A stretch of DNA of 64,000 nucleotides from an uncultured Candidatus Saccharibacteria bacterium (GCA_964514595.1 CAZEQZ010000001.1:107914-171913); one strand, 5' to 3'. Counted from the stretch's first letter, positions 1 to 14,184 are shown. Made by a program: numbers and translations. The notes: generated from the letters alone by a model not told the origin.

Positions 1-357
1 GTAGTAGGGGAAGTTTTTTATGGCCTGTGCGTTCTGTACTAGTATTTTGTTACTTGGATTCTTTTTGTTATATTCATCTATATGGTCTATGATAAATCTC
101 TTGAAATGATATTCCTTCTCATCATCTAGGCTATGACCTCTAAATATAATGTGGGAGTATTCTAAAACGTCCTTCCTATTAGCCATAATAGAAGTTTTTC
201 CATTTCCAAAAAGAAACTCTAACTGGTCATTGTATACGAAATCATATTCTATATCTCTCTTCTTTAATTCTTCTACTAACCTAGCAGAACCTGTGGGAAT
301 TTCTCCCATTGTATCTACCTGTACTCTCTGTCTTTTGTCTATGATTAAGTATTTCAT
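1..357 (-). CDS. Partial CDS (5' end at 357, runs off window start). Hypothetical, with an 'FLFGNGKTS' motif reminiscent of the Mur-ligase P-loop (GTNGKTT). Possibly a split cyanophycin-synthetase C-terminal-like domain.
   Basis: Reverse-complement translation from ATG (complement of 355-357) is open to the window edge: MKYLIIDKRQRVQVDTMGEIPTGSARLVEELKKRDIEYDFVYNDQLEFLFGNGKTSIMANRK... It lies 1 nt downstream of the ATP-grasp gene at 359..2050 on the same strand. It is not in the ORF track because it is truncated. Confidence 0.4.
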   Translation of the reverse strand, partial: MKYLIIDKRQRVQVDTMGEIPTGSARLVEELKKRDIEYDFVYNDQLEFLFGNGKTSIMANRKDVLEYSHIIFRGHSLDDEKEYHFKRFIIDHIDEYNKKNPSNKILVQNAQAIKNFPYY

Positions 358-358
358 A

Positions 359-2050
359 CTATATGATTTTAATTTTATCTATTAACCCTTTTCTTTGGTA
401 TTTTCTTATTATCTTAAAATTCTCCTTCTGTGTACTTTGCTGTTTACTTACTATCACTAAGTCTATTCTATCAAATCCTAAGCCATTTTCTCTCACATCT
501 TGCCAATCTCTATGATGTATTAGAATCGCATCTAGGGAAGCATTAATTTTAAGAGCTTCGATAGCCTTCTGCTTATCTACACCCGAATTTACCTTAAGAG
601 AGTTAAAAAGTATATCTCCATCTTTAAACTCTCCTATATATTCCTCATCTGTTAGGTATGAACCGAGTATACTTTTCTGTCTTAATAGGGTGGGGATGTC
701 TTTTGTAAATTGTCCGATGGTGACTATTCTTTTTGTTTTATTCTCTTTGAGTAACTTCTCTATATATATGTCTCCAACATACTCTCTACTTTCTCCAATT
801 ACAGGGAATAGATTAAGGTATGCTTCTGGCATAGTATTAATTTCTAGAATGCCTCCATTTTCCTTTGTGAGAGGCTTACTAATATCGTTGCAGAGTATAT
901 CAGCCCCAATTACAAATGCATGGATGGATTTAGCTATGCTTTCTACGATGTATTTAATCTCGGGACCTACCTTATCTGTATAGTCCTCTGTTATACCTCC
1001 TTGGCTCATACTGGCAACCTTTCTGACAGTTACCTTCTCATCTTTCTTAGGAATATACTGAAGGGAGAGGTTTTGCTCCTTGAGGAATTCTAGGAGTGGT
1101 TCATCTATCCTGATTGGTTTTAATGTGTGAGCGGGGTTAGATATATCTCTTCTGGGATCATTGTTTGTTTCTTCTATAAGTTGTTCTATGTTCTTTTTAC
1201 CATCTCCGATTATAAATGCGGGGATTCTTTTTGTGACAATTTCCAATTTGCCATCTATCACAAGAAGTCTGTAGTCTTCTCCCTGTACCTGCTCTTGCAT
1301 CATAATTTTCTTTTGCCATAGGGGTCTTATCTTTTCATCTGTTTTCTCCTTAGCCCATCTGTATGCTTTCTTTGCTTGATCTATAGTTTTAATATTCATA
1401 GATACACCTTTCCCACCTGTGAGTCCTGTTGGTTTGATAACTAGGGGCTTTTGATATAGATCCCAGGTCTTCTCAATATCATCTTCGCTTTCTAATACCT
1501 GCCATTTGGGTATTGGGAGGGCGAGCTTTTCTATTATTTGATTAGATGCCCATTTGTCTCTCTGTATCTCTTTTGCAATTTTAGAATCCTGACTAGAGGA
1601 TATGGAGTACATTATTTGAGAACCTTTGCCACATCCTAATGTATAGTGACGATTTAATGTCTTGGTATATCCAAGCATCCTGTCCATGACTAGGGTGGGG
1701 GTTACCTCATATCCTTTTTTAAAGGCAGAATTAAGGAGAGTTAAGGTGGACATGGAAGCAACTCGGTACTTTATCACCTCATTAACAATATATTCCTTTG
1801 CGTCTTCGTATGTTATTTTGTCTATAGACAGGTCTATTAATGTATATGCGATTTCTTTCCAAAGAGAAGGAAGCTTTGATTCTAATAGTAATTGATCTTG
1901 TTGAAATTTGAAGGATTTAAGAAATAGGGGATGGAAGTTTTGTATTAATTTCAAAAGCTCTTTTACTGACTCTGTCTCATTTATTTTAACAGTAATTATG
2001 GAGGTTTCTGATTGTAGGTTGAGTCCTTGTAGTGTGGTTATATCTTTCAT
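359..2050 (-). CDS. ATP-grasp amidoligase, cyanophycin synthetase (CphA) N-terminal-half-like. It has an ~200-aa N-terminal extension and no Mur-ligase half.
   Basis: 563-aa ORF. Segments such as KPLVIKPTGLTGGKGVSMNI, EDYRLLVIDGKLEIVTKRIPAFIIGDGKKNIEQLIEETNNDPRR and ADILCNDISKPLTKENGGILEINTMPEAYLNLFP align, from memory, with the CphA ATP-grasp domain (PIVLKP..G..G, HRVLVINGKLVAVSERIPAHVTGNG..TIEELIQETN, GIDVVTPDITKPLTEVDGVIVEVNAAPGFRMH). Confidence 0.7.
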   Translation of the reverse strand: MKDITTLQGLNLQSETSIITVKINETESVKELLKLIQNFHPLFLKSFKFQQDQLLLESKLPSLWKEIAYTLIDLSIDKITYEDAKEYIVNEVIKYRVASMSTLTLLNSAFKKGYEVTPTLVMDRMLGYTKTLNRHYTLGCGKGSQIMYSISSSQDSKIAKEIQRDKWASNQIIEKLALPIPKWQVLESEDDIEKTWDLYQKPLVIKPTGLTGGKGVSMNIKTIDQAKKAYRWAKEKTDEKIRPLWQKKIMMQEQVQGEDYRLLVIDGKLEIVTKRIPAFIIGDGKKNIEQLIEETNNDPRRDISNPAHTLKPIRIDEPLLEFLKEQNLSLQYIPKKDEKVTVRKVASMSQGGITEDYTDKVGPEIKYIVESIAKSIHAFVIGADILCNDISKPLTKENGGILEINTMPEAYLNLFPVIGESREYVGDIYIEKLLKENKTKRIVTIGQFTKDIPTLLRQKSILGSYLTDEEYIGEFKDGDILFNSLKVNSGVDKQKAIEALKINASLDAILIHHRDWQDVRENGLGFDRIDLVIVSKQQSTQKENFKIIRKYQRKGLIDKIKII

Positions 2051-2058
2051 TTTACTGT

Positions 2059-3045
2059 TTAAGAATTTATATATTTATCTCTGATATATTCCATAATTGG
2101 AATAGCAACTTTCACAACTTTTCCCCTATCTACCTTGTAGTGAAGTCTGAGTCCAGGATTATAGTTAATTTCATTTATGGCTAGTTTAGATGGTTTGGAG
2201 ATATTTTCTGCTATTATGTCCACTCCGCCAAATTCTGCACCAACAACTCTTACCGCTTTTATGGCTATCTGTTTGTAGTAGTCGTGTACTTCAGACATGC
2301 ACTCCTGTGTGCTACCACCTGTGGTTAAGTTACAGTTGTATCTAAGTATTATCTCTTCGTCTTTATCTGGTACATAGTCTAGATCTAGGCTAGAGCGTTG
2401 TAGTTTGAGTACCACCTCGTTATCAATATTTATTGGCTTCAATCTGTTATTTTTTCTCTGTAAGTTCTTTTGTGTGATTAGCTCCCTTATAGTATTCTTG
2501 CTATTGCCAATAACATGGGCTGCTTTCCTTCTAACTACACCAATAACCTTCTCTCCTACGACTAAGAATCTGTAGTTTTCACCATGCATAAACTCCTCCG
2601 CTAAAACCTTGCTTTTAGATATAGATTTAGAATTCTCTAAAGCTATTTCATATGCCTTTAACACCTGTTCTTCTGTTTGGGGCAAGATAGTGACTCCTAT
2701 ACCGCCTAACTGTTGTGTTGGCTTTAATACAATATCTTTGTACTTTCCAAAGAACTTAATTGCATCTATAGGGGCTTGTATGTCCTCTTGTATTGGTACT
2801 GGTAGATCTTTATCTTTTAGTACTAAGTTAGTTAAGTGTTTTCTTTTACATATAGTAGTACTTGTTGCGGGGGTTAGAGGTGTTACAGTATTAATTATGA
2901 ACCAATGTTTCTTTTTGTATTCAAATTTAGCAAGCAAGCTTCTTATTAAAATTTCGTATTTAATATCCAATTCATCAGCTGCCTCTAGGTAGTAGGCGAG
3001 GTGTACGTTTCCTGCTTCTTTTAGATAGTATTCGTATGATTTCAT
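2059..3045 (-). CDS. ATP-grasp amidoligase, second CphA-N-like paralog (328 aa).
   Basis: VLKPTQQLGGIGVTIL glycine-rich loop, ENYRFLVVGEKVIGVVRRKAAHVIGNSKNTIRELITQKN and VDIIAENISKPSKLAINEINYNPGLRLH match the same CphA ATP-grasp core regions. There is an 8-nt gap to the downstream gene and 4 nt to the upstream gene. Confidence 0.65.
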   Translation of the reverse strand: MKSYEYYLKEAGNVHLAYYLEAADELDIKYEILIRSLLAKFEYKKKHWFIINTVTPLTPATSTTICKRKHLTNLVLKDKDLPVPIQEDIQAPIDAIKFFGKYKDIVLKPTQQLGGIGVTILPQTEEQVLKAYEIALENSKSISKSKVLAEEFMHGENYRFLVVGEKVIGVVRRKAAHVIGNSKNTIRELITQKNLQRKNNRLKPINIDNEVVLKLQRSSLDLDYVPDKDEEIILRYNCNLTTGGSTQECMSEVHDYYKQIAIKAVRVVGAEFGGVDIIAENISKPSKLAINEINYNPGLRLHYKVDRGKVVKVAIPIMEYIRDKYINS

Positions 3046-3049
3046 GTTT

Positions 3050-4498
3050 TTATTTAAATGTTTTACTCGTATCTATTAGATATCCTTTCAGTTCATTTCT
3101 TCCTATAACTACAGGATATATGGAGTCTTCTATTATTATCATCTCTATATCTTTAATTTCACCAGATATCTTGGTTTTGACATCTACTACCGGTCTTATT
3201 TTAACTCCATTTTCCTCTACGACTCTTGCGACTCTTTTGAAAATTTTATTGTTAAACATCTCCTTATTTTCATCAATATATTTTTGAGCTTCTTTGGGAG
3301 ATTCAAATTTTTCAGGAATGGGCAAAGAGTTGAAGAATTTAATTGTTGGCATGAATCCTATTCTATTGGCCATGCTTTTTGATATACGAGATGTTAATAT
3401 CCCTGTATCCATGAATGAATTGGTGATCTCTTTTTTCAAATCTTTTAATTCTTTATCTTCGTTATAGTACAGAATTATCTTCTCATTGATATTAACAACT
3501 TTCCTCCCACTAATTGCCTCTATGCTTTCCTCTACCTCCCCACCAAAAAGATTCTTAGCTACTCTGATCCCATGCTTTATACTTTTTATTTGTAGTCCTT
3601 TGACCTTTTCTAATCTCCACCTAAGGCCTGTTCTGTTTGCAACCTGTATACCTAATCCTGGCCTGGCATTTAATTCAAATACAACAGGCCCCTTATCTCT
3701 ATCTAGTGCAATATCTACACCTATATATCCAAGCTTACTAACTTTTTGACATACCAAGGCTATTCTTAATAACTCATCCCAGAAAGGAATTTGTATACCA
3801 CTAAGTTTTTTGTTCTCTTTTAGATCTGTTGTGGAGTCTATAATCTCATATGTGTCACTAAACAATGACTTAGGTGCCATCTGCATAGAGTATGTTGTTA
3901 TACCTGTACTAATGTCTATACCTGTACATATAGCTCCAGAGTGAAGATTTGCAGTACCGTTGGATCGTTTTGTTGGTAATCTAGTCATTGCCATTATTGG
4001 AACCCCATTAAAACAGATAAGTCTAATATCAGGAACACCTCGGTATGAGTACTGTTTGAGTAGGGGGTCTGTCTTTATTCGTTCCTCTATTATAGCTATG
4101 TCTGTTTTAGAACCCATCGAGAATCTTCCTTCTAATATGTTTTCTATGTGGAGTGTAATGTCTCTTTTATTCATATTCTCTCCACTAGGTCTAATCCATA
4201 CATTCTCGCCTTTCTTTTTGCCATAGAAGACTATTATTCCATTTCCTCCAGTACCTTTGTTAGGTTTGATAACAAAGCTTTTAGGGAGGGAGTCCCAATC
4301 TAGAAATCGCAACTGTTTTTTATTTTTGATTAGCTTATAGACTTCAGGAGATTTTATCCCCTCCTTGGCAAGGACCTTCTTGGTAAGGATTTTGTTGTCT
4401 GCAATACTTTTTGCAGTCGGAGAATTATACGGACGAATATATTCCTGATTTCGTCTATTTAATCCTAGTATTTCTTTGTATTTATTGCTTAGTAACAT
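3050..4498 (-). CDS. RimK-like alpha-L-glutamate-ligase-related ATP-grasp fused to a C-terminal retropepsin-like (clan AA, DTG) peptidase domain.
   Basis: 482-aa ORF. N-terminus ILGLNRRNQEYIRPYNSPTAKSIADNKILTKKVL and VIKPNKGTGGNGIIVF are typical of RimK-related ligases. The C-terminal ~130 aa contains FMDTGILTSRIS, i.e. D-T-G followed by T-S as in putative-ATP-dependent-zinc-protease / retropepsin-like domains. It overlaps the 7TM gene by 17 nt. Confidence 0.65.
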   Translation of the reverse strand: MLLSNKYKEILGLNRRNQEYIRPYNSPTAKSIADNKILTKKVLAKEGIKSPEVYKLIKNKKQLRFLDWDSLPKSFVIKPNKGTGGNGIIVFYGKKKGENVWIRPSGENMNKRDITLHIENILEGRFSMGSKTDIAIIEERIKTDPLLKQYSYRGVPDIRLICFNGVPIMAMTRLPTKRSNGTANLHSGAICTGIDISTGITTYSMQMAPKSLFSDTYEIIDSTTDLKENKKLSGIQIPFWDELLRIALVCQKVSKLGYIGVDIALDRDKGPVVFELNARPGLGIQVANRTGLRWRLEKVKGLQIKSIKHGIRVAKNLFGGEVEESIEAISGRKVVNINEKIILYYNEDKELKDLKKEITNSFMDTGILTSRISKSMANRIGFMPTIKFFNSLPIPEKFESPKEAQKYIDENKEMFNNKIFKRVARVVEENGVKIRPVVDVKTKISGEIKDIEMIIIEDSIYPVVIGRNELKGYLIDTSKTFK

Positions 4499-5243
4499 TT
4501 TCTTTTTCGGATGTTATTGATTTAAATCTGAATAGATCTTTCACTCTAAGACCTTTGAATTGACCTATTAACAAATTAACAAATATTAGTAGAGGTACGA
4601 TCCAAAGATTCTCCAACATATATCTTGATATATAATCTCGACTGATTGCATACCACCCTATAGTTGAGATAATGAGTGTACTAAGAAGTATCATGGCTGA
4701 TGTTTTAAGAGATTTCTGTACATACTGTTTTATGAAAAAATCCGAGAGTGCAGCGATTGATATAACAGCAAGTGGGGGTATTTGTGCCATGTTTTCTAAT
4801 CCCAGACCGTATCGATTGATTAACAGAAAGAATATCACTAGGGATATAGATAGGAGACAGTAGTTAATTGCTATTCTTGTGATGTAGTGCATTCTAATTC
4901 TCTTGATTATTGAGTAGGAGAGTAGGGTAGTTAGTATAACGATTGTAGTTACAGATAGACCATACTTCAAACCTGTATATGTGTATGCAATAGCCAGTAT
5001 TATTGGTGCATATATTCCGTATGTTTTGGAACCAAATATGTACCTAGCTATACTTACAATTGTAGCCAATATGGTTATTGCAACAAGTAGCTCTAGCATC
5101 TGTTTTGATACTCCGTTATCTAATATCCATTGAGTAAAAGAAGAGTATTCCATATATCTAAGTTGATAATTTATTATAATGGCAGATTCCGATGTAATTA
5201 TACTTCTTTTGTATATATCTTGTCGATTAAAAGGAAAGACCAC
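4482..5243 (-). CDS. Polytopic (about 7 TM) membrane protein with no soluble domain; 7TM-receptor-like partner of the ligase cassette. Start uncertain: a GTG at 5243 lies inside a terminator hairpin, and the alternative ATG at 5153 gives MEYSSFTQW...
   Basis: 253-aa ORF with about seven hydrophobic helices (LLVAITILATIVSIA, IYAPIILAIAYTY, LSVTTIVILTTLLSY, INYCLLSISLVIFFLLI, IPPLAVISIAALS, AMILLSTLIISTIGWYAI, LWIVPLLIFVNLLIG). It is translationally coupled to the RimK-like gene. Confidence 0.5.
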   Translation of the reverse strand: MVFPFNRQDIYKRSIITSESAIIINYQLRYMEYSSFTQWILDNGVSKQMLELLVAITILATIVSIARYIFGSKTYGIYAPIILAIAYTYTGLKYGLSVTTIVILTTLLSYSIIKRIRMHYITRIAINYCLLSISLVIFFLLINRYGLGLENMAQIPPLAVISIAALSDFFIKQYVQKSLKTSAMILLSTLIISTIGWYAISRDYISRYMLENLWIVPLLIFVNLLIGQFKGLRVKDLFRFKSITSEKENVTKQ

Positions 5244-5260
5244 CCATTGGGTGGTCTTTT
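5236..5260 (-). terminator. Rho-independent-type hairpin downstream of rplL.
   Basis: An 8-bp GC-rich stem (agaccacc / ggtggtct) with a 4-nt loop, flanked by T-runs on both strands. It sits between the rplL stop (5280) and the 7TM gene. Confidence 0.4.
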
Positions 5261-5279
5261 AATCTCATTGTTAAGAAGA

Positions 5280-5684
5280 TTATGCTAATTCAATAGTAGC
5301 ACCTGCTTCCTCGAATTTGCCTTTGATTTCCTCTGCTTCTTCTTTTGCAACACTCTCCTTTACAGTTTGAGGTGCAGAATCTACGAGGTCTTTAGCTTCT
5401 TTGAGTCCTAGTTCTGTTATCTCTCTTACAACTTTAATAACTCCAATCTTGTTAGATCCAGCATCCTTTAATACGATATTGAAAGATGATTTCTCTTCTT
5501 CTGCTGGAGCTGCTTCTGCAACAGGTGCTGCCATAGCAACAGGTGCTGCTGCGCTTACTCCAAACTTGTCTTCCATGACTTTTACAAGATCAGCAAGTTC
5601 TAAGACAGACATTTTCTCTACAATTTCGAGAACTTTTGTACCATTTGCTGAAAGCTCTGGTAATGTTTTTGTCTCTTCTGCCAT
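5280..5684 (-). CDS. rplL: 50S ribosomal protein L7/L12.
   Basis: MAEETKTL...[22 protein letters not shown], an Ala/Pro hinge, and C-terminal [19 protein letters not shown]...[10 protein letters not shown]. Confidence 0.92.
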
Positions 5685-5722
5685 ATTTGTATATTAATTA
5701 AATTAAGTAGTTATTTGTCTAA

Positions 5723-6244
5723 TTAAGCATTCTTCTCAGATATGCCCTTAAGAACCACGGTTAAACCTTTAACATTGCCTGTGACGGCATTCATAAAGCC
5801 GGATAGTGGGGCGTTCATAGTTCCTACTAATTGGCTTAACAACACCTCTCTGGATGGAATTTCTGCAAGTTGCATAACTTTCTCCTCAGATAGGAATTCT
5901 CCCTCATATACTCCACCTTTTGCACTAAGTAATTCTGTTTCTTTCTGTAATTGCTTGATTAATTTTGCAGGAGCAGTTGGGTCCTCGTCAAAATATATTA
6001 CTGCTGTTGGACCATCTAATTCTTGTGTTTGAATAGGTTGTTCTGTCTCTTGTAGGGCGACTTTAAATATACTGTTCTTGACAACGGTATAATTAGAGCT
6101 AATATCTTTTAGTTGAGACTTAAGTTTGGATACAGTTGGTGTATCTGTTTTGTCAGAGCTAACCAAAAAATATCCTACTTTATTTTTTAGAATATCTTTA
6201 TATTTATCCAATAACTCTGTTTTTTGTGTACGAGTTTTTGCCAT
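5723..6244 (-). CDS. rplJ: 50S ribosomal protein L10.
   Basis: 173 aa, MAKTRTQKTELLDKYKDILKNKVGYFLVS..., immediately upstream of rplL. Confidence 0.85.
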   Translation of the reverse strand: MAKTRTQKTELLDKYKDILKNKVGYFLVSSDKTDTPTVSKLKSQLKDISSNYTVVKNSIFKVALQETEQPIQTQELDGPTAVIYFDEDPTAPAKLIKQLQKETELLSAKGGVYEGEFLSEEKVMQLAEIPSREVLLSQLVGTMNAPLSGFMNAVTGNVKGLTVVLKGISEKNA

Positions 6245-6435
6245 ATTATTATATTTTAAATTTGAATGTATATATTACCTCGCAAGGATTTATGTTTGTA
6301 CCTTGTTTCTTAGGTTAATACTAGAGCGATTATATCAGTGTGGTAGGGGTTGGTCAAGAGAGGGTGGTATGTGATATGTCTAGATATAATGATCTATATA
6401 GAGACATAATCGCCATCCTCTCTTTTCCAAATTTG

Positions 6436-6666
6436 TTATTGTTCTTCTTTCAGGTCTCCGTTTTCAAGCTCTATTGTGAGTGTTATAGTATCGCCTAAAG
6501 GGAATCTGATCCACGAGTAGCTGTGAGTTCTTTCGTTGTTTCTTATTAAAACAACTATTGTGTCCGGATCATCCTCCTTCTGTTTTATAGTGATTATGGA
6601 ATTTCCTTCTCTCGGGATACTTATGTGAAGCTTTTTCAACAATGGTAGTATCTCTTGCTTTTGCAT
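6436..6666 (-). CDS. Hypothetical small protein (76 aa).
   Basis: ORF only, with no recognisable motif. It lies in the insertion between rplA and rplJ. Confidence 0.3.
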   Translation of the reverse strand: MQKQEILPLLKKLHISIPREGNSIITIKQKEDDPDTIVVLIRNNERTHSYSWIRFPLGDTITLTIELENGDLKEEQ

Positions 6667-6861
6667 CAGCCTCTCTCTTTCTTTTTTAAGAACAACAAAT
6701 TTTTGAAAGCAGTATTCTACTCCTTAATATGTGAATTGTAAACAGGGGGGACGAGAAGGGAGGGTGATATACAATGTAAATTGTGATGAAAACAATCATC
6801 CTCCCTTATCTTTGTTTACAAACTTACTAGCTTATTGGTTGACGTCTGGGATAAGATATTT

Positions 6862-7257
6862 CTAGCTAATTTGAAAGTTAAGAAGAGCAACCTCCTTCGG
6901 AGGAAGTTTCTTCAACTCTTCAAATAGTAGTCCCTGTATCTTGTCCTCAGGAAGATCCTCAGGGATCTCGCGTTCCATATGATTAAGGAGATTTTGTTCA
7001 AATTCCTCCTCGTTGTCTGCAACGGGGCATTTACTGCCCTGGCATAGTGTCACAGGACATACACAGCACGGATACTTCCAAGCAATCATCAGTAACTCCT
7101 TTGTTTTAATGCGGAAATTTTTAAGAGCAACAGTAAGTTTGTTGCCTATAGATTTTATCTTATAGTGACGGTTTTGTGAAGTGTTAAAGTAGATTGACAT
7201 TCCGTGAGTGATCTGGTAGTATGTGGCTACTAATCTGTGAGTATTTCTGTATGGCAA
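6862..7257 (-). CDS. Hypothetical Cys-rich protein (131 aa; CC-x-C-x5-C-x4-C cluster). Start uncertain.
   Basis: WKYPCCVCPVTLCQGSKCPV cysteine cluster followed by an acidic tail. ORF only. Confidence 0.3.
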   Translation of the reverse strand: MPYRNTHRLVATYYQITHGMSIYFNTSQNRHYKIKSIGNKLTVALKNFRIKTKELLMIAWKYPCCVCPVTLCQGSKCPVADNEEEFEQNLLNHMEREIPEDLPEDKIQGLLFEELKKLPPKEVALLNFQIS

Positions 7258-7526
7258 AATATGAAAATAGACTACAAGTAAGTGTCTCTAATAAGTTACA
7301 TTCTAGACTTAGGGATAGAGCGGAATATCTAGGTGCTTCTTTACCTGAATATGTAAGGTATGTTTTGATGAAAGAAATGGAGAAAGGAGAATTAGAGAAT
7401 AATTCTGAATATATACAACTTGCAAAAGAGAGTTTAGAGGATTCTAGAAAGGGAAAGTTGAAAGAGTTTCCTAATGTAGATGAGGCATTGAAATATCTTG
7501 ATGCTTACGTGCGAAGCGATGAGTAA
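7251..7526 (+). CDS. Type II antitoxin, ribbon-helix-helix (CopG/ParD-like).
   Basis: MAKYENRLQVSVSNKLHSRLRDRAEYLGASLPEYVRYVLMKEM is an RHH pattern. It overlaps the downstream toxin ORF by 8 nt. The ORF track starts it at 7221, but the in-frame ATG at 7251 fits better. Confidence 0.55.
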   Translation: MAKYENRLQVSVSNKLHSRLRDRAEYLGASLPEYVRYVLMKEMEKGELENNSEYIQLAKESLEDSRKGKLKEFPNVDEALKYLDAYVRSDE

Positions 7527-7812
7527 TTATAAGATAGGATTCAACCAAAAATTCCTTAGAAAAATAAAAACTATTTATAAAAAGGATAAAGTTCTGTATG
7601 CCAAATATCTTAAGGTTATAGAGAGGGTGGGAAAAGATCCTTTTGCCGGTGGGTTGAGGACCCATTCTACAGGAGTGATAGATCACGGGAGAATCTTTAG
7701 CTCTAGGGTAACTGGTGATATTAGGGTTATTTGGTGTATAGAGCAGAAAGAAAAAAGGATAATACTATTAGATATTGGTGGGCACGAGGGAGGCAAGAAA
7801 GTTTACAAATAA
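7519..7812 (+). CDS. Type II toxin, RelE/ParE superfamily.
   Basis: MSNYKIGFNQKFLRKIKTIYKKDKVLYAKYLKVIERVGKDP...GDIRVIWCIEQKEKRIILLDIGGHE matches the characteristic RelE/ParE C-terminal pattern. The 8-nt start/stop overlap with the antitoxin is typical of TA pairs. Confidence 0.55.
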   Translation: MSNYKIGFNQKFLRKIKTIYKKDKVLYAKYLKVIERVGKDPFAGGLRTHSTGVIDHGRIFSSRVTGDIRVIWCIEQKEKRIILLDIGGHEGGKKVYK

Positions 7813-7813
7813 A

Positions 7814-8503
7814 TTACTCTTTCTTAGCGTAGCTTATCTTTACACTAGGTCCCATAGTTGGTGCTAAATGCATTCTTTTTATAGCTTGCATATATCCTTT
7901 TCCAATAGCACTCTCTACTGCTGATATAGCCTCATGAATATTCTCGATTAATTTTTCATCCTCCATATCTAACTTCCCAACACTCATATGTATTACGCCT
8001 GAAGCATCGCACGTAAATGTCTGTTTTCCTTTCTTGTATTCTTCTACTACTGAGGCAATATCCTCAGTTACAGTTCCTACCTTCGGATTAGGCATAAGGC
8101 CCTTAGGACCTAATTCTTTACCTAATACAGCAATCTGTGGCATAACAGAAGGTGTAGCTATTGCAACATCAAATTCAATCTTACCATCCTTAACATCCTT
8201 CATAAGTTTATCTAATCCTACAAAATCAGCACCAGCCTTTTTAGCAACCTCATCCTTATCTGGTGTTGTAAATACAGCTATCTTAACACTCTTTGTAGCT
8301 GTAGAGTGGGGTAGTGATACGCTTCCCTTTATTGATTTAGGATCCTTATCTTTAGGTATATTAATATCAATATGTGCCTCTAGCGAACCTACAAACTTTG
8401 AGTATGAAAGACTCTTAACTTTTTTTACCCCCTCCTCTAAAGAGTATGTTTTGGATCTATCTAAATCTTTTGACACTTTTTTATAATTTTTTCCTCTTCT
8501 CAT
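7814..8503 (-). CDS. rplA: 50S ribosomal protein L1.
   Basis: 229 aa, ...FDVAIATPSVMPQIAVLGKELGPKGLMPNPKVGTVT... Confidence 0.9.
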   Translation of the reverse strand: MRRGKNYKKVSKDLDRSKTYSLEEGVKKVKSLSYSKFVGSLEAHIDINIPKDKDPKSIKGSVSLPHSTATKSVKIAVFTTPDKDEVAKKAGADFVGLDKLMKDVKDGKIEFDVAIATPSVMPQIAVLGKELGPKGLMPNPKVGTVTEDIASVVEEYKKGKQTFTCDASGVIHMSVGKLDMEDEKLIENIHEAISAVESAIGKGYMQAIKRMHLAPTMGPSVKISYAKKE

Positions 8504-8520
8504 TCTAGTACTAGTATTAA

Positions 8521-8946
8521 TTAAAGTTCTACATCAACGCCCATCTGTTTTGCTGTCCCAGCTATTATTTTAGCTGCTTGGTCATAGTCAGATGTATTTA
8601 AGTCTGGCATCTTAATGTCTATTATTTTTTTAACCTGTTCCTTAGAAAGCTTTCCAACTTTGTTTAAGTTAGGTTTGTCAGAACCCCTTTTGATTTTTAA
8701 CTCCCTCCTTATCAACTCAGATGTGGGAGGAGTTTTTAGTATGAAATCAAAGGATCTGTCTTCGTATATAGTCAATATCACAGGAGTCAGGATACCATTA
8801 CTCTCCTTTGTTCTTTCATTGAATTGAGAGCAAAAATCTTGTGTATTAATACCGTATGGAGCTAATGTTGGACCTATTGGAGGTGCCATTGTAGCTTGTC
8901 CAGCTGGTATTGTTATTTTTATAACTTTTTTAATCTCTTTTGCCAT
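8521..8946 (-). CDS. rplK: 50S ribosomal protein L11.
   Basis: MAKEIKKVIKITIPAGQATMAPPIGPTLAPYGIN... Confidence 0.92.
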   Translation of the reverse strand: MAKEIKKVIKITIPAGQATMAPPIGPTLAPYGINTQDFCSQFNERTKESNGILTPVILTIYEDRSFDFILKTPPTSELIRRELKIKRGSDKPNLNKVGKLSKEQVKKIIDIKMPDLNTSDYDQAAKIIAGTAKQMGVDVEL

Positions 8947-8970
8947 ATTAGTATAAACTATTTAAATATT

Positions 8971-9552
8971 CTAAAGCTTAGTAACTTGAGAAAGATCAAG
9001 CTCTACAGGAGCCTCTCTACCAAGGAATGAGATGAGGACTTTTATCTTTCCTTTAGTAGTATCTATCTCTTGTACACTTCCTATGAAGTCTGCAAATGCA
9101 CCATCAGTTATTTTAACTGCTTCTCCAACACTAAATGATGTCTTAAATGATGGCTGTTCCACTTCCATGAATTTTGTAATTGCCATTACCTCAGATTCTG
9201 CCAAAGGCTTTGGATATTTATCTGTTTTAACAAAGCCCCTTACCCCCTCTGTATTAGTTACTATATCCCATGTTTTATTGTCTAATTCCATCTTGATTAG
9301 AATATATCCAGGAAATATCTTCTCTTCTTTCACATCCTGTTTGCCTTTTTTAACAAAAATCTTCTTCTGTACAGGAACTAATATATCTACAATCTTATCC
9401 TGCATCCCTGTTGCTTCTGCTCTTTGATTTATTTCCTTCTGTATACTATTTTCGTATCCAGTTCTAATATTTAACACATACCACTTAGCATTAGGATTGC
9501 TCTTCTTTTTACTTTTTACTACTTTCTTTTCTTTTTTAATTTCTTTTGTCAT
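8971..9552 (-). CDS. nusG: Transcription termination/antitermination factor NusG.
   Basis: KWYVLNIRTGYENSI... NGN domain, and C-terminal KOW (GEAVKITDGAFADFIGSVQEID). Confidence 0.85.
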   Translation of the reverse strand: MTKEIKKEKKVVKSKKKSNPNAKWYVLNIRTGYENSIQKEINQRAEATGMQDKIVDILVPVQKKIFVKKGKQDVKEEKIFPGYILIKMELDNKTWDIVTNTEGVRGFVKTDKYPKPLAESEVMAITKFMEVEQPSFKTSFSVGEAVKITDGAFADFIGSVQEIDTTKGKIKVLISFLGREAPVELDLSQVTKL

Positions 9553-9562
9553 ATTTGTTTAA

Positions 9563-9733
9563 TTAAACATTAAGAAACCAATCTCTTAATTTGAAAAGAA
9601 TCAAATCAAGACCTACCATTACGGCAGCGATTATACCACACAGTATTAGTGTATATATTGTTAACTGCAATAATTCCTTCTTAGAAGGCCACTTACTATT
9701 CTTTAATTCTGTTACTATATCTCTTATTTTCAT
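9563..9733 (-). CDS. secE: Preprotein translocase subunit SecE (56 aa).
   Basis: Manual reverse-complement translation gives MKIRDIVTELKNSKWPSKKELLQLTIYTLILCGIIAAVMVGLDLILFKLRDWFLNV, the SecE signature (W-P..E plus a single TM). It sits immediately upstream of nusG. It is below the ORF-track size cut-off. Confidence 0.6.
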   Translation of the reverse strand: MKIRDIVTELKNSKWPSKKELLQLTIYTLILCGIIAAVMVGLDLILFKLRDWFLNV

Positions 9734-9746
9734 CTTTATATATATT

Positions 9747-9822
9747 TGGCAGGCCCACTCCGACTTGAACGGAGAACTACGGTTTTGGAGACCGCTGTTT
9801 TACCAATTGAAACTATGGGCCC
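9747..9822 (-). tRNA. tRNA-Trp (anticodon CCA), with the CCA end encoded.
   Basis: Reverse complement GGGCCCATAGTTTCAATTGGTAAAACAGCGGTCTCCAAAACCGTAGTTCTCCGTTCAAGTCGGAGTGGGCCTGCCA folds as a cloverleaf with a 7-bp acceptor stem, anticodon loop CTCCAAA and T-loop TTCAAGT. Confidence 0.75.
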
Positions 9823-9838
9823 TAAATTGGTAAAAGAG

Positions 9839-10006
9839 CTACTGTTTTACTTTGGTCTCTTTATGTACTGTATGTGCCTGGCACTTGGAACAGTACTTCT
9901 TTTTTTCAATTTTTTCTTTCAGATTTTTACCTTTAAACGCAGTATAGTTTTTTGTTCCACAGATCTCACATTTAAAAGCAATGATATCTCTCTTTACTTT
10001 AGCCAT
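9839..10006 (-). CDS. rpmG: 50S ribosomal protein L33.
   Basis: Manual translation gives MAKVKRDIIAFKCEICGTKNYTAFKGKNLKEKIEKKKYCSKCQAHTVHKETKVKQ, with the CxxC...CxxC L33 zinc ribbon. It holds the canonical position upstream of tRNA-Trp/secE. Confidence 0.7.
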   Translation of the reverse strand: MAKVKRDIIAFKCEICGTKNYTAFKGKNLKEKIEKKKYCSKCQAHTVHKETKVKQ

Positions 10007-10131
10007 ATTTTTCGGGAATCAAATTTAGAATAATGGGAAAATACTCCGTATTATATTGGAAATAGTAGGGGAGGTCAAATATTTTTTAGGTTTTGAAAAA
10101 ATTATATATTGGTGTATTATTTATTTAATAT

Positions 10132-11070
10132 ATGGATGAAAATATAAAGGGAGGAAATTCTACAACGGAGAGTTCTGAGGGATCTTCAAAATCGGCTAGA
10201 ATAGTAGCTGCTGGTCTGGCTGTAGCAGGAGCCCTTACTCCAAAGGATGCTGTGTCTGCAATGACCGTGGATAATTACGATTCTAATACTGCTCCTGTAG
10301 TGGAGACAACGGGAAAGACTTCAGAGGAGATGTATTCTACTCCCGGTATTGAGGCGGTTAGGGAGGATCAGATGATGCCTTCCGTTCAAGAAATAGATCC
10401 AATTACAGAAAAAGGTGGAATTGTTTTCCCAGGGATAGACTATGAGTTTATGGTGGTATCTCCTTTGGGAGCATACGGTCCAGATGGCACATACTATCCC
10501 AACGCACTGCCAGAGGGTGGTATTATTAGTATAGGTGGTGTAGAGGCAGAGGTTACATATAATACAGGATATTTCCCAGAAGGGATAACGTTTCTCAATT
10601 TTCCTTCGGGGGAGGGGTTAGAGGCAGGACAAGTATTTCCGTATATGGCTTTTGTTCCTTACAATAGGGCTTTTAGGGGAACTAATTTTGCTGAGAATCA
10701 TCAGGGGAGTAAGGAGAAAACGGTATATTCAGATTCCAGGAAGGGAGGAGTGTCATATGTTGTGATGCCAATAGTAGTCTCAGGGAGGGTATCAACGATA
10801 TTTCCTCCAGATGTAGAAAATGGAAAGATTATCGAGGGTCCTACAAAAAGTTTGAAATTAGCAGCAAAAGGGATAACGACGGATACAAGTGGAGGAGTGG
10901 ATTGGCTTTTCTGTTCACTTAGTCAGAAGGAAGATGGGAAAGTTCTATTAAAAGTAGAGGCTATTTTAATCAATGATGGTTCTGGTGCAGGGGTATACAT
11001 GGATCCTCAAGGTGTTCCTATTGAAATGGCTAGTAAATTAAGGTCTGCCGGTTGGGATTCGGAGTTTTGA
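10132..11070 (+). CDS. Hypothetical protein (312 aa), Gly/Pro/Tyr-rich.
   Basis: ORF only. Its N-terminus has a short hydrophobic segment (IVAAGLAVAGAL). Confidence 0.4.
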   Translation: MDENIKGGNSTTESSEGSSKSARIVAAGLAVAGALTPKDAVSAMTVDNYDSNTAPVVETTGKTSEEMYSTPGIEAVREDQMMPSVQEIDPITEKGGIVFPGIDYEFMVVSPLGAYGPDGTYYPNALPEGGIISIGGVEAEVTYNTGYFPEGITFLNFPSGEGLEAGQVFPYMAFVPYNRAFRGTNFAENHQGSKEKTVYSDSRKGGVSYVVMPIVVSGRVSTIFPPDVENGKIIEGPTKSLKLAAKGITTDTSGGVDWLFCSLSQKEDGKVLLKVEAILINDGSGAGVYMDPQGVPIEMASKLRSAGWDSEF

Positions 11071-11505
11071 TTAGAGAATTGTCCAAGATAGAGTGTCTTT
11101 CTTTTTTGCAAACTTCAAACCTTCTAGTATGGTATAGGGTATCCAATCTTTGATGCTATTACTATATCCATTGTCAAAATTATGGTCTTCTACAGCAACT
11201 ACTTTTTTGTCCCCTAGATTAAAAACTAAGGCTAAACATCTTTTTTGTTTACTAAACAACATTTTGCGTTCATCAGAGGTAATGTCTTCTGGCGGATATA
11301 CTATAACATTTGGTCCTACGAAATCATTACTATATTGTGTCCTTACACCCAATCCGTCGTCTACTATATTGAATATCCCTGTTTCGTCTAATAATTGATT
11401 AACCCCATCGGAAAGTGACTCTAGTGTCTCAGAAGATATTTCCATACAATCTTCTGTTATATATGAGGTTGATCCTCCGTTAAAACCTTCTGTCTTTACA
11501 GGCAT
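11071..11505 (-). CDS. Hypothetical protein (144 aa).
   Basis: ORF only. It is convergent with the previous gene and abuts it. Confidence 0.35.
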   Translation of the reverse strand: MPVKTEGFNGGSTSYITEDCMEISSETLESLSDGVNQLLDETGIFNIVDDGLGVRTQYSNDFVGPNVIVYPPEDITSDERKMLFSKQKRCLALVFNLGDKKVVAVEDHNFDNGYSNSIKDWIPYTILEGLKFAKKKDTLSWTIL

Positions 11506-11582
11506 AATATATTAAGGTTAAATTTAAAAGAATAGCGAGCATTATATACTATTAATTAGAATTTGTAAAAACTATGGGACAA

Positions 11583-11656
11583 AGCTGGATCTGAGAATCG
11601 AACTCAGGACCTCATTCTTACCATGAATGTGCTCTAACCAACTGAGCTAATCCAGC
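11583..11656 (-). tRNA. tRNA-Thr (anticodon GGT).
   Basis: Reverse complement GCTGGATTAGCTCAGTTGGTTAGAGCACATTCATGGTAAGAATGAGGTCCTGAGTTCGATTCTCAGATCCAGCT, 74 nt; anticodon loop ATGGTAA. Confidence 0.7.
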
Positions 11657-11725
11657 AATTATAGGAAGATGTCGAGATGCTGATTTAGCATTCTGGACAA
11701 CCCTCCACACTATAAGTTAGCGGGA

Positions 11726-11808
11726 TGCAGAGGACAGGATTTGAACCTGTGTATCCCGAAGGAGTCGGATTTACAGTCCGATGCGTTTGACCACTCCGCC
11801 ACCTCTGC
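11726..11808 (-). tRNA. tRNA-Tyr (anticodon GTA), with a long variable arm.
   Basis: Reverse complement GCAGAGGTGGCGGAGTGGTCAAACGCATCGGACTGTAAATCCGACTCCTTCGGGATACACAGGTTCAAATCCTGTCCTCTGCA, 83 nt; anticodon loop CTGTAAA. Confidence 0.7.
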
Positions 11809-11812
11809 TTAT

Positions 11813-11889
11813 TGGAGCCGAAGAAGAGATTCGAACTCTTGACCTACTGTTTACAAAACAGTTGCTCTGACCAACTGAGCTACTTCGGC
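11813..11889 (-). tRNA. tRNA-Thr (anticodon TGT), with CCA encoded.
   Basis: Reverse complement GCCGAAGTAGCTCAGTTGGTCAGAGCAACTGTTTTGTAAACAGTAGGTCAAGAGTTCGAATCTCTTCTTCGGCTCCA, 77 nt. Confidence 0.7.
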
Positions 11890-11946
11890 ATTCGCAGTTG
11901 CAAGTTTAATATATGTAGAAAATATAGTCAATATAAGAAGGGAAAT

Positions 11947-12092
11947 GCTCTAGAAGGTGTGGAATCATAGAGCTCTGTATTCAAAGTGGGTTTCCGCAAC
12001 CTGGTCCCACGGGACCAAGCAATTTTTGCTGTTTGGAATCCCTAAGCTCTTTAGTATGGAGCTATGAAACCACAGTATTCCAACTAGAGCAG
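11947..12092. ncRNA. Candidate structured RNA (~150 nt, multi-stem). Identity and strand unknown.
   Basis: A closing stem gctctag / ctagagc encloses nested stems: tgtgg/ccaca, tcatag/ctatga, gctc/gagc, a perfect hairpin tggtcc-cacg-ggacca, and agcaa-ttt-ttgct. The region is non-coding and sits next to the tRNA array. Confidence 0.2.
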
Positions 12093-13052: not shown

Positions 13053-13128
13053 TCAGTATACAGTTGATATTTTTTAACACAGACACTCGTGTTCTTTTTT
13101 CTTAAATGATAGAATCAGTATAACAATT

Positions 13129-14184
13129 ATGAATTTTTTTGAATCCCTTTGGGGACTTGTAACATATGATTTAGGAATAGACTTGGGGACTGCTAACACC
13201 ATGGTATATATGCGAAATCATGGGATTGTTGTATCAGAGCCCTCTGTTGTAGCTATAGAAAAGAGAAGTAAAACAATACTAGCAGTCGGGAAAGAAGCCA
13301 GGCAAATGATCGGGAGAACTCCAGCAAATATTGTTGCTATAAGACCTCTTAAGGATGGAGTAATATCGGATTTTGATACTACGCAGGCCATGATTCATCA
13401 TTTTATACATAAAGCACATAACTACTTTGGTAAGGGTTTTAAGATACCTAGGCCAAGGGTGATAGTGGGGGTGCCTTCCTCTGTAACTGAAGTTGAAAGA
13501 CAAGCGGTTATAGATGCAGCAAAAACAGCAGGAGCTAGGGAGGTATTCATTGTAGAGGAAGCTATGGCAGCTGCAATAGGTGCAGGCCTACCTATAGAAG
13601 ATGCCTCTGGAAGTATGATTATAGATGTTGGAGGAGGAACTACTGATATAGCAGTATTCTCTTTGGGTGACATAGTTGTAGACAAGACTATGAAGGTAGC
13701 TGGGGATGAAATGGATGAAGATATCATTAACTATGTTAGAAGTAAGTACAATATGTTAATTGGGGAGAGAACAGCCGAGGATATCAAAATATCAATGGGA
13801 TCTGCCATGCCAATGAAGAAAGAGAAAAAGGTAAATGTGCAAGGTAGGGACCTATTAACAGGTCTTCCAAAGACAGTAGAGCTTAGTAGCATAGAAGTAA
13901 GGGAGGGGATGATGAATTCAATATTGATAATAACGGAATCTATAAAAGATGCTATAGAGGAGACACCTCCAGAGCTTCTGAGGGACTTACTTACTACAGG
14001 TGTAAGTCTGACAGGGGGAGGAGCTCTTATTAGGGGGTTGGACGTCTTTTGGTCCAAGGAATTAAATATTCCTGTTAAGGTAGTGGAGGATCCTCTTTCT
14101 ACAGTCGCTAGAGGTACAGCATTGATGTTGGACCATATAGAACTTTTAGACAGGGTCCAAAAATCGTGGCAGGAATTGGTTTAA
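13129..14184 (+). CDS. mreB: Rod shape-determining protein MreB (actin homolog).
   Basis: DLGIDLGTANTMVYMRNHGIVVSEPSVVAI..., DVGGGTTDIAVFSLG, TGGGALIRGLD. Confidence 0.9.
   Translation: MNFFESLWGLVTYDLGIDLGTANTMVYMRNHGIVVSEPSVVAIEKRSKTILAVGKEARQMIGRTPANIVAIRPLKDGVISDFDTTQAMIHHFIHKAHNYFGKGFKIPRPRVIVGVPSSVTEVERQAVIDAAKTAGAREVFIVEEAMAAAIGAGLPIEDASGSMIIDVGGGTTDIAVFSLGDIVVDKTMKVAGDEMDEDIINYVRSKYNMLIGERTAEDIKISMGSAMPMKKEKKVNVQGRDLLTGLPKTVELSSIEVREGMMNSILIITESIKDAIEETPPELLRDLLTTGVSLTGGGALIRGLDVFWSKELNIPVKVVEDPLSTVARGTALMLDHIELLDRVQKSWQELV

Follow-up and report, generated by a model that had tools for sequence, protein, structure and literature searches.

The combination of a seven-transmembrane-helix (7TM) membrane protein, an ATP-grasp ligase and a retropepsin-like protease was reportedly predicted as a system on computational grounds by Iyer et al. 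in 2009. A sequence-only reading of the DNA analysed here still took this trio as known from computational prediction alone, a view that is outdated, as the same trio, rloABC, has been characterised genetically and structurally in Pseudomonas aeruginosa (Lormand et al., mBio 2025, PMC12239564; PDB 9g58, 9g59). RloB is a 7TM protein whose transglutaminase domain is inactive, RloC a cytoplasmic ATP-grasp, and the RloA paralogues are secreted retropepsins that cut stretches of at least eight Glu; the lethal hypo-osmotic phenotype of a triple rloA1-3 deletion is suppressed by deleting rloB or rloC, and Rlo effects in Pseudomonas extend to osmotic tolerance, antibiotic resistance, biofilm and cell shape (PMC12239564). 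The distribution of RloB was reported as 96 % Proteobacteria, and no fusions were mentioned (PMC12239564). Here we analysed a stretch of 64,000 nucleotides (nt) from an uncultured Candidatus Saccharibacteria bacterium (GCA_964514595.1, CAZEQZ010000001.1:107914-171913; hereafter the window), which begins with a cassette of five minus-strand genes, g1 to g5, next to rplL. Judged from the protein families that it encodes, this cassette is a variant of the rloABC system in an expanded, Patescibacteria-type form.

With rloABC the cassette shares a PF14402 7TM protein, a TIGR02291/PF14397 ATP-grasp and a retropepsin of the RimB/RloA family, encoded by adjacent and co-directional genes. In contrast to rloABC, however, g1 lacks the periplasmic inactive-transglutaminase domain, and the retropepsin is fused to the ligase, apparently cytoplasmic, devoid of a signal peptide and equipped with a helical insert. 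Three additional ATP-grasps and a MATCAP-like peptidase appear to be attached, and the host belongs to the candidate phyla radiation (CPR). Our literature search found nothing that contradicts the novelty of this extended combination, and none of the titles listed paired cyanophycin with Patescibacteria. The five open reading frames (ORFs) and their domains, with lengths in amino acids (aa), are as follows.

4482..5153, minus strand: g1, RloB-like 7TM membrane protein, 223 aa from its most likely start; the ORF is open upstream to a GTG at 5243
3050..4498, minus strand: g2, 482 aa, RloC-type ATP-grasp plus retropepsin-like domain
3599..4456, minus strand: N-terminal ATP-grasp domain of g2, aa 15-300
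3053..3496, minus strand: predicted C-terminal RimB/RloA-like retropepsin domain of g2, aa ~335-482, with a helical insert
2059..3045, minus strand: g3, 328 aa, stand-alone ATP-grasp of the CphA G-domain / GshAB C-terminal type
359..2050, minus strand: g4, 563 aa, CphA2-like
1646-2050, minus strand: N domain of g4, aa 1-~135
740-1645, minus strand: ATP-grasp G domain of g4, aa ~136-437
362-739, minus strand: truncated M-like remnant of g4 without P-loop, aa ~438-563
1..357, minus strand: g5, starting at ATG 357, with the first 119 of its 317 aa in the window; divergent RimK-family ATP-grasp

The tight packing described by the sequence-only reading was recovered, with a 17-nt overlap of g1 and g2 and gaps of 4 nt (g2/g3), 8 nt (g3/g4) and 1 nt (g4/g5). 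As the g1 stop overlaps the g2 start, the two genes are probably translationally coupled. Homologues of every cassette protein number in the hundreds, with E=0 to 1e-200, and the genes are therefore far beyond chance. In profile searches with hidden Markov models, the complete proteins matched PF14402, PF14397/TIGR02291 and the CphA models.

Residues 15-300 of g2 matched PF14397 at 9.3e-67 (225.6 bits, cut-off 31.4) and g2 matched TIGR02291 ('alpha-L-glutamate ligase-like') at 8.4e-89 (297.7 bits), which identifies it as an RloC-type ATP-grasp. Its ligase residues K78, G82/85/87, D262, E275 and N277 are invariant among 16 Patescibacteria fusions, down to 38-53 % identity. The C-terminus gave marginal matches by sequence alone (0.047 to a gag-asp protease Pfam model at the DTG, 0.0023 to the NCBIfam RloA3 model, 0.16 in the PDB), and the domain itself is too divergent for a direct match to PF05618. 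When a 25-sequence profile was searched against the PDB, 9g59/9g58 (RloA2/RloA) ranked at the top with E 0.02-0.03, and the DTG segment and the C-terminal strand were collinear in the alignment. An AlphaFold2 model of the domain reached a predicted local distance difference test score (pLDDT) of 83, and its top 50 Foldseek matches in the PDB were all retropepsins, among them the Ddi1 RVP domain, Lpg0085/DUF785, Rickettsia APRc, HIV-1 PR, RloA and RloA2. Furthermore, a phmmer search with the protease domain retrieved 44 proteins, including more distant full-length fusions of 465-511 aa that carry a canonical K[IV]DTGA motif and precomputed matches to PF05618 'RimB-like'. Because of the model with its Foldseek matches and these transitive PF05618 matches, we assign the g2 C-terminus to the retropepsins; this confirms a retropepsin-like domain with conserved D-T-G, in agreement with the proposed fusion of a RimK-related ligase to a DTG-containing clan-AA protease.

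The D-T/S-G motif and the C-terminal G-R..L...D strand of the retropepsin fold are both present in g2, as FMDTGILTSR and YPVVIGRNELKGYLIDT, with the conserved C-terminal strand G[RK]xxLxxYLID. Across the 16 aligned fusions G366 is invariant, D364 and T365 are conserved in at least 90 %, and the G..L...L.D strand is retained; in a set restricted to Dojkabacteria, D and T do not vary and conservation of G is at least 90 %. A divergent fused homologue (P0127, L034:1040-2545) has N-T-G in place of D-T-G, and DTS, DTT or DTV occur in a few Dojkabacteria sequences. No signal peptide was found on the g2 retropepsin, which therefore differs from a separate, secreted RloA-type protease and, being fused to the C-terminus of the ligase, would reside in the cytoplasm. 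This cytoplasmic ligase-protease topology is nearer to the RimK-RimB system of S6 poly-glutamylation, in which a cytoplasmic retropepsin binds an ATP-grasp alpha-L-glutamate ligase and trims poly-Glu, and the fusion mimics that complex. However, RimK/RimB has no membrane partner, and g2 and g5 fall far under the cut-off of the RimK family TIGR00768 (56 and 51.1 bits, with 65.9 for g3, vs 143.4).

The membrane protein g1 matched PF14402 (7TM_transglut) at 2.5e-16 and carries no soluble domain, as anticipated for a protein of about seven transmembrane helices. Its match to the NCBIfam RloB model is limited to positions 298-505 of 508, the C-terminal 7TM half, so that g1 (223-253 aa) corresponds to that half of RloB without the inactive transglutaminase domain. 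A conserved C-terminal tail, G-L-R-x-x-[DE]-x-[FL]-R-F-K, probably faces the cytoplasm. The sequence-only reading had let this gene begin at 5243, but the GTG at this position falls inside the stem of a terminator-like hairpin, gene calls on identical contigs gave 223 aa in L002 and L003 (205 aa in L001), and alignments of orthologues span 210-230 aa. For these reasons ATG 5153 is the most likely start. The hairpin and a promoter candidate lie between rplL and the cassette:

5235..5259, minus strand: intrinsic-terminator-like hairpin ending the rplJL unit, AAAGACCACCC-AAU-GGGUGGUCUUU then CCUUUUAAU
5197..5226, minus strand: sigma-70-like promoter candidate for the cassette, TCGACA-18-TATAAT, 11/12, a consensus match only

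Located directly 3' of the rplL stop (5280), the hairpin has an 11-bp stem with six GC pairs followed by a T-rich tail, and the RNA of the rplL-cassette interval has a fold z-score of -3.46. No internal terminators or promoters of note were found within the cassette. The suggestion that the cassette forms its own transcription unit 3' of the rplL terminator is thus supported by these predicted signals.

Both g3 and g4 had their best matches in the G domains of cyanophycin synthetases and the C-terminal ATP-grasp of GshAB. For g3, the match to NF010623 (1.7e-64) covers profile positions 166-470 of 871 and the match to PDB 7wac reached 1.5e-33; in comparison with CphA1/CphA2, g3 corresponds to a G domain alone. 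In g4, the sequence alignment continues into CphA positions ~480-575, and against CphA2 (7ta5) it runs from 149-550 on 185-577 of 629. An AlphaFold2 model of g4, computed with database homologues as input, had a pLDDT of 85.9; its top Foldseek match was CphA2 7ta5 (E 5.3e-36, ~598 columns, TM-scores of 0.70 for the query and 0.68 for the target, ~22 % identity), followed by CphA1 structures and then more CphA2 structures. From the CphA2 sequence alignment and the end-to-end match of the model we derive an N + G + truncated M-like architecture for g4, the architecture of CphA2 (7ta5, 8fxh/8fxi; TM 0.68-0.70), in which the M domain is truncated and inactive. A sequence-only search with the C-terminal 138 aa gave nothing meaningful. 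Since g4 orthologues vary at the Mur P-loop position (consensus IVVVGxxxxDIPTLL), the remnant does not appear to be an ATP-binding Mur module. The view that two ligases correspond to the ATP-grasp half of CphA only therefore applies to g3, whereas g4, although likewise similar to CphA G domains, also contains an N domain and the remnant of a truncated, M-like domain. Among relatives of g2, g3 and g4, including the orthologues of g3 and g4, the catalytic Lys, Gly-loop, Mg-binding Asp and E-x-N of the ATP-grasp fold are invariant, consistent with the three peptide ligases originally counted.

The truncated ORF at the window edge, in contrast, had been taken for a possible Mur-ligase, and this identity did not hold. 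The fragment of g5 in the window matched no Pfam or NCBIfam model, Mur_ligase included. When completed from identical contigs (L003:7376-8326, 317 aa), g5 matched PF08443 at 8.8e-11 (42.2 bits vs a cut-off of 21) and the MptN, RimK and CofF models at 1e-15 to 1e-11; a search of g5 against the PDB gave no matches. The string FLFGNGKTS, on which the Mur assignment was based, lies in the N-domain preceding the ATP-grasp and is not conserved in orthologues. We therefore reject the Mur-ligase identity and regard g5 as a fourth ATP-grasp, of the RimK family.

To see how far the cassette is conserved, 26 genome loci of Dojkabacteria (WS6, Patescibacteria/CPR) were compared; the source genome itself was assigned to Candidatus Dojkabacteria. 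The order rplJ-rplL-g1-g2-g3-g4-g5-(MATCAP, reverse)-(MreB, reverse) is kept in all 26 loci where these are long enough, down to 38-55 % identity, the sole exception being L026, in which g5 was not detected between g4 and the MATCAP gene; the same order was found in 14 metagenome loci. Outside Dojkabacteria the gene content is more variable: L031 and L039 hold the 7TM gene and the fusion alone, L037 adds a RimK-like gene, and in L034 rplL is followed by the 7TM gene, the fusion, a g3-like and a g4-like gene. In L038, a distant Patescibacteria locus between ruvC and ruvA, one strand carries in succession the 7TM gene, the fusion, an ATP-grasp of 478 aa, a CphA-like protein of 562 aa (30 % identical to g4) and a MATCAP protein of 431 aa. 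The expected co-conservation in related CPR genomes is thus seen in the 26 Dojkabacteria loci and, beyond them, in L034, L037 and L038, and the linkage evidence from outside Dojkabacteria is stronger than the synteny within. In general, a PF14402 membrane protein appears to be combined with an RloC-type ATP-grasp, and a peptidase of the retropepsin or MATCAP type is fused to this ligase or encoded next to it, with extra ligases being optional; the fullest gene set appears in Dojkabacteria. In a few contigs of metagenome-assembled genomes (L020, L025, L108, L116) cassette genes are split in two ORFs, which look like frameshifts or assembly errors and not like real pseudogenes.

Beyond g5 and just outside the window, the opposite strand encodes a 375-aa MATCAP-like protein. 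It matched PF08014 with 104.4 bits (cut-off 27) and TIGR02421 ('QEGLA'), contains HEVGTH and EEGLA motifs, and aligned to human MATCAP (PDB 7z5g) at 9.2e-17. A metagenome scan with a MATCAP alignment yielded 80 loci, 28 of which encode fusions of an RloC-type ATP-grasp with the MATCAP-like domain (ATPgrasp_ST::MATCAP, ~640-800 aa); four of these were checked against Pfam (L043, L045, L058, L083; 644-804 aa). In 18 of the 28, the fusion gene lies directly 3' of a gene for a PKD + 7TM_transglut membrane protein. Examples of fusions and of such partners are listed below.

L043:3807-6107, L058:7699-10050 and L045:4542-6953: ATPgrasp_ST::MATCAP fusions, 767-804 aa
L043:2125-3810 and L058:6122-7666: fusion partners with PKD + 7TM_transglut

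One further locus, L042, has a MATCAP-RimK pair. Based on the co-directional arrangement in L038 and on the fusions to RloC-type ATP-grasps, a Rosetta-stone type of evidence, the MATCAP-like carboxypeptidase is predicted to belong to the system. Among the 80 loci, 37 have no recognised ATP-grasp neighbour, and the sampled neighbours of stand-alone MATCAP homologues were RsmB/F, SerRS, OLD-like and TPR proteins, with no ATP-grasps. Our literature search returned no paper joining MATCAP or DUF1704 with ATP-grasp, and nothing useful for QEGLA/COG3930. The pairing resembles that of MATCAP / KIAA0895L with TTL/TTLL ligases, in that a PF08014 protein with HExxxH and EEGLA is paired with, or elsewhere fused to, ATP-grasp ligases. 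In contrast to TTL/TTLL, the bacterial ligases are of the RloC, CphA and RimK types, with weak PF03133 matches in relatives alone; moreover, the MATCAP gene, located here beyond the window edge, has a convergent orientation in Dojkabacteria, and no tubulin-like or acidic-tailed target was identified.

In the source genome alone, a gene for an HD-domain phosphohydrolase (L003:8354-9037, PF01966 4.6e-16) is located between g5 and the MATCAP-like gene; it is absent from that position in the other Dojkabacteria loci. On the far side of the MATCAP-like gene follows one of two MreB paralogues that are ~43 % identical to each other. This one (L003:10250-11269, minus strand) is 75-96 % conserved and in Dojkabacteria always adjoins the MATCAP-like gene, which it does not do in L038, while the other (13078-14181 of the window, plus strand) heads an apparent mreBCD-type cluster.

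Taken together, we consider it on balance probable that the cassette encodes a system, associated with the membrane, in which a peptide or poly-amino-acid of probably acidic character is made independently of the ribosome and then trimmed. Like RimK, CphA-G and GshB, the ligases would use ATP to convert a terminal carboxylate to an acyl-phosphate and attach one amino acid after another. The resulting oligomer or polymer of amino acids would be free or attached to a carrier or to the C-terminus of a protein. By analogy with the specificity of RimB/RloA, a Glu/Asp-rich product is most likely. The CphA2-like g4 could be the processive member that holds the growing polymer. As an endopeptidase, the fused retropepsin would cut within the chain, whereas trimming of the chain's C-terminus would fall to the MATCAP-like enzyme, a carboxypeptidase; we therefore propose that chain length is set by a balance of writers and erasers. 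The 7TM protein would act at the membrane as a tether, gate or sensor of the process. In line with this proposal, the catalytic motifs are intact in g2, g3, g4, the retropepsin and the MATCAP-like protein.

Several observations weigh against this interpretation. The TIGR02291 score of g2 is slightly under the equivalog cut-off of 314.2. In g5, E-x-N is replaced by E-I-S and the Gly-loop is degenerate, both conserved in orthologues, and g5 may therefore be inactive, a pseudo-enzyme or regulatory subunit. Similarly, with DTS, DTT, DTV or NTG instead of DTG in a few g2 homologues, the retropepsin may be inactive in some lineages. Synteny in Dojkabacteria alone is weak evidence, because the housekeeping flanks rplJL and mreB are equally conserved there, and a co-directional MATCAP gene outside Dojkabacteria was seen in one locus (L038), in addition to the fusion proteins. 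Finally, acidic C-terminal tails were sought on the neighbouring L7/L12, L10 and L1 and on the MATCAP-adjacent MreB, and none was found.

The CPR cassette is a natural minimal, fused form of Rlo, without the transglutaminase domain and with ligase and protease in one polypeptide. At the same time it is expanded by three further ligases and another peptidase. The retention of the cassette at ~70-80 % identity in genomes with a longest assembled contig of ~0.76 Mb implies an important function. Through the repeated fusion of MATCAP to RloC-type ligases, a family of eukaryotic tubulin-tail erasers is tied to a bacterial amidoligase system, and the fusion proteins offer concrete constructs for product discovery. 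Should the system prove to make a poly-amino-acid or protein tail of a new kind, an uncultured phylum would have yielded a new route to peptides that is independent of the ribosome.

Alternatively, the ligases could modify the envelope by adding amino acids or short peptides to glycopolymer, peptidoglycan or lipid-linked precursors, in the manner of D-Asp ligase, Ddl or the pseudomurein ATP-grasps, with the 7TM protein handling a lipid-linked or extracellular substrate. We hold this to be possible, if somewhat unlikely. The Pfam title of PF14397, 'sugar-transfer associated ATP-grasp', points in this direction, as do the cell-shape, beta-lactam and hypo-osmotic phenotypes of P. aeruginosa rlo mutants (PMC12239564). 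The 7TM partner in other lineages has extracellular PKD or inactive-transglutaminase domains, and in Dojkabacteria the cassette adjoins an mreB paralogue. However, outside Dojkabacteria the mreB paralogue is no longer adjacent, the protease domain of this cassette is predicted to be cytoplasmic, and no glycosyltransferase, flippase or Mur gene was found in or beside the cassette in any lineage examined. MATCAP acts on protein C-termini. The associated peptidases both act on peptide chains, RloA/RimB on poly-Glu (PMC12239564).

A further reading is a prokaryotic 'C-terminal tail code', in which several ATP-grasp writers add a defined acidic or aromatic tail to a specific protein, the retropepsin and the MATCAP-like enzyme act as erasers and the 7TM sensor exerts control. 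We regard it as unlikely. In that case the widespread bacterial ATPgrasp_ST::MATCAP fusions would represent the evolutionary origin, or else a deep analogue, of the TTL/TTLL-MATCAP system for tubulin tails in eukaryotes. The MreB paralogue next to the MATCAP-like gene was considered as an acidic-tailed substrate and rejected: it has no acidic tail and the adjacency does not extend beyond Dojkabacteria.

It is very unlikely that the cassette makes a cyanophycin-like (Asp-Arg) storage polymer by means of a CphA split into separate genes, as the sequence-only reading had considered with the downstream ORF as the Mur-ligase half. Admittedly, CphA G domains are the best matches of g3 and g4, some databases label g4 orthologues 'cyanophycin synthetase', and g4 has the full architecture of CphA2, which polymerises beta-Asp-Arg, with intact ATP-grasp residues. 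However, the downstream ORF is a RimK-family ATP-grasp without a Pfam or NCBIfam Mur_ligase match and with an unconserved 'GNGKT', a conserved P-loop is missing from the M-like remnant of g4, and in comparison with CphA1 the Arg-adding M domain is missing, so that the cassette appears to contain no active Mur-type (Arg-adding) module. Scores against the CphA equivalogs TIGR02068 / NF010623 (246-253 bits for g4 and 206-218 for g3 vs cut-offs of 850-877) are too low for CphA1, and the ~22 % identity of g4 to CphA2 as well as the Rlo-type context and the CPR host are unlike cyanobacterial cphA2 loci. Elsewhere in the 64-kb window neither a paralogue nor a Mur-type ligase was found, and no cyanophycin-related genes were seen there, although cyanophycinase itself was not searched for.

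Mere synteny in a compact genome would mean that g1-g2 form a two-gene Rlo-like unit and that g3-g5 and the MATCAP-like gene have unrelated functions. The loci with the 7TM gene and the fusion alone (L031, L039), the equally fixed positions of rplJL and mreB in Dojkabacteria and the 37 of 80 MATCAP-like loci that lack a recognised ATP-grasp neighbour would fit such a scenario, which is nevertheless highly improbable given the gaps of 1-8 nt without notable internal terminators or promoters and the recurrence of the association in the non-syntenic L037 and L038 and as domain fusions. That the ATP-grasps cyclise a ribosomal precursor peptide whose leader is removed by the proteases, as in graspetide-type ribosomally synthesised and post-translationally modified peptides, is hardly conceivable. 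Graspetide cyclases are indeed RimK-like ATP-grasps and two peptidases are present, but no small conserved ORF lies in or beside the cassette in the Dojkabacteria loci (gaps of at most 8 nt), the gene tables of L037, L038 and L039 have no comparable small ORFs beside it, the small ORFs upstream of rplJ (rplA-rplJ interval) have no Pfam match, and g3 and g4 fall in the CphA/GshB clade, not the cyclase clade.

In the surroundings of the cassette, the rplKA-rplJL ribosomal cluster is interrupted by two overlapping small ORFs on the plus strand (7221-7526 and 7498-7812; 101 and 104 aa), which look antitoxin/toxin-like by eye and have no Pfam match at E<=0.01. Two orphan minus-strand ORFs (6436-6666 and 6862-7257) likewise had no Pfam match. 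An Rfam scan of positions 1-12000 revealed neither a riboswitch nor a leader family upstream of the cassette or rplJ, and its only matches were three tRNA genes:

9750-9822, minus strand: tRNA gene (Rfam)
11726-11808, minus strand: tRNA gene (Rfam)
11816-11889, minus strand: tRNA gene (Rfam)

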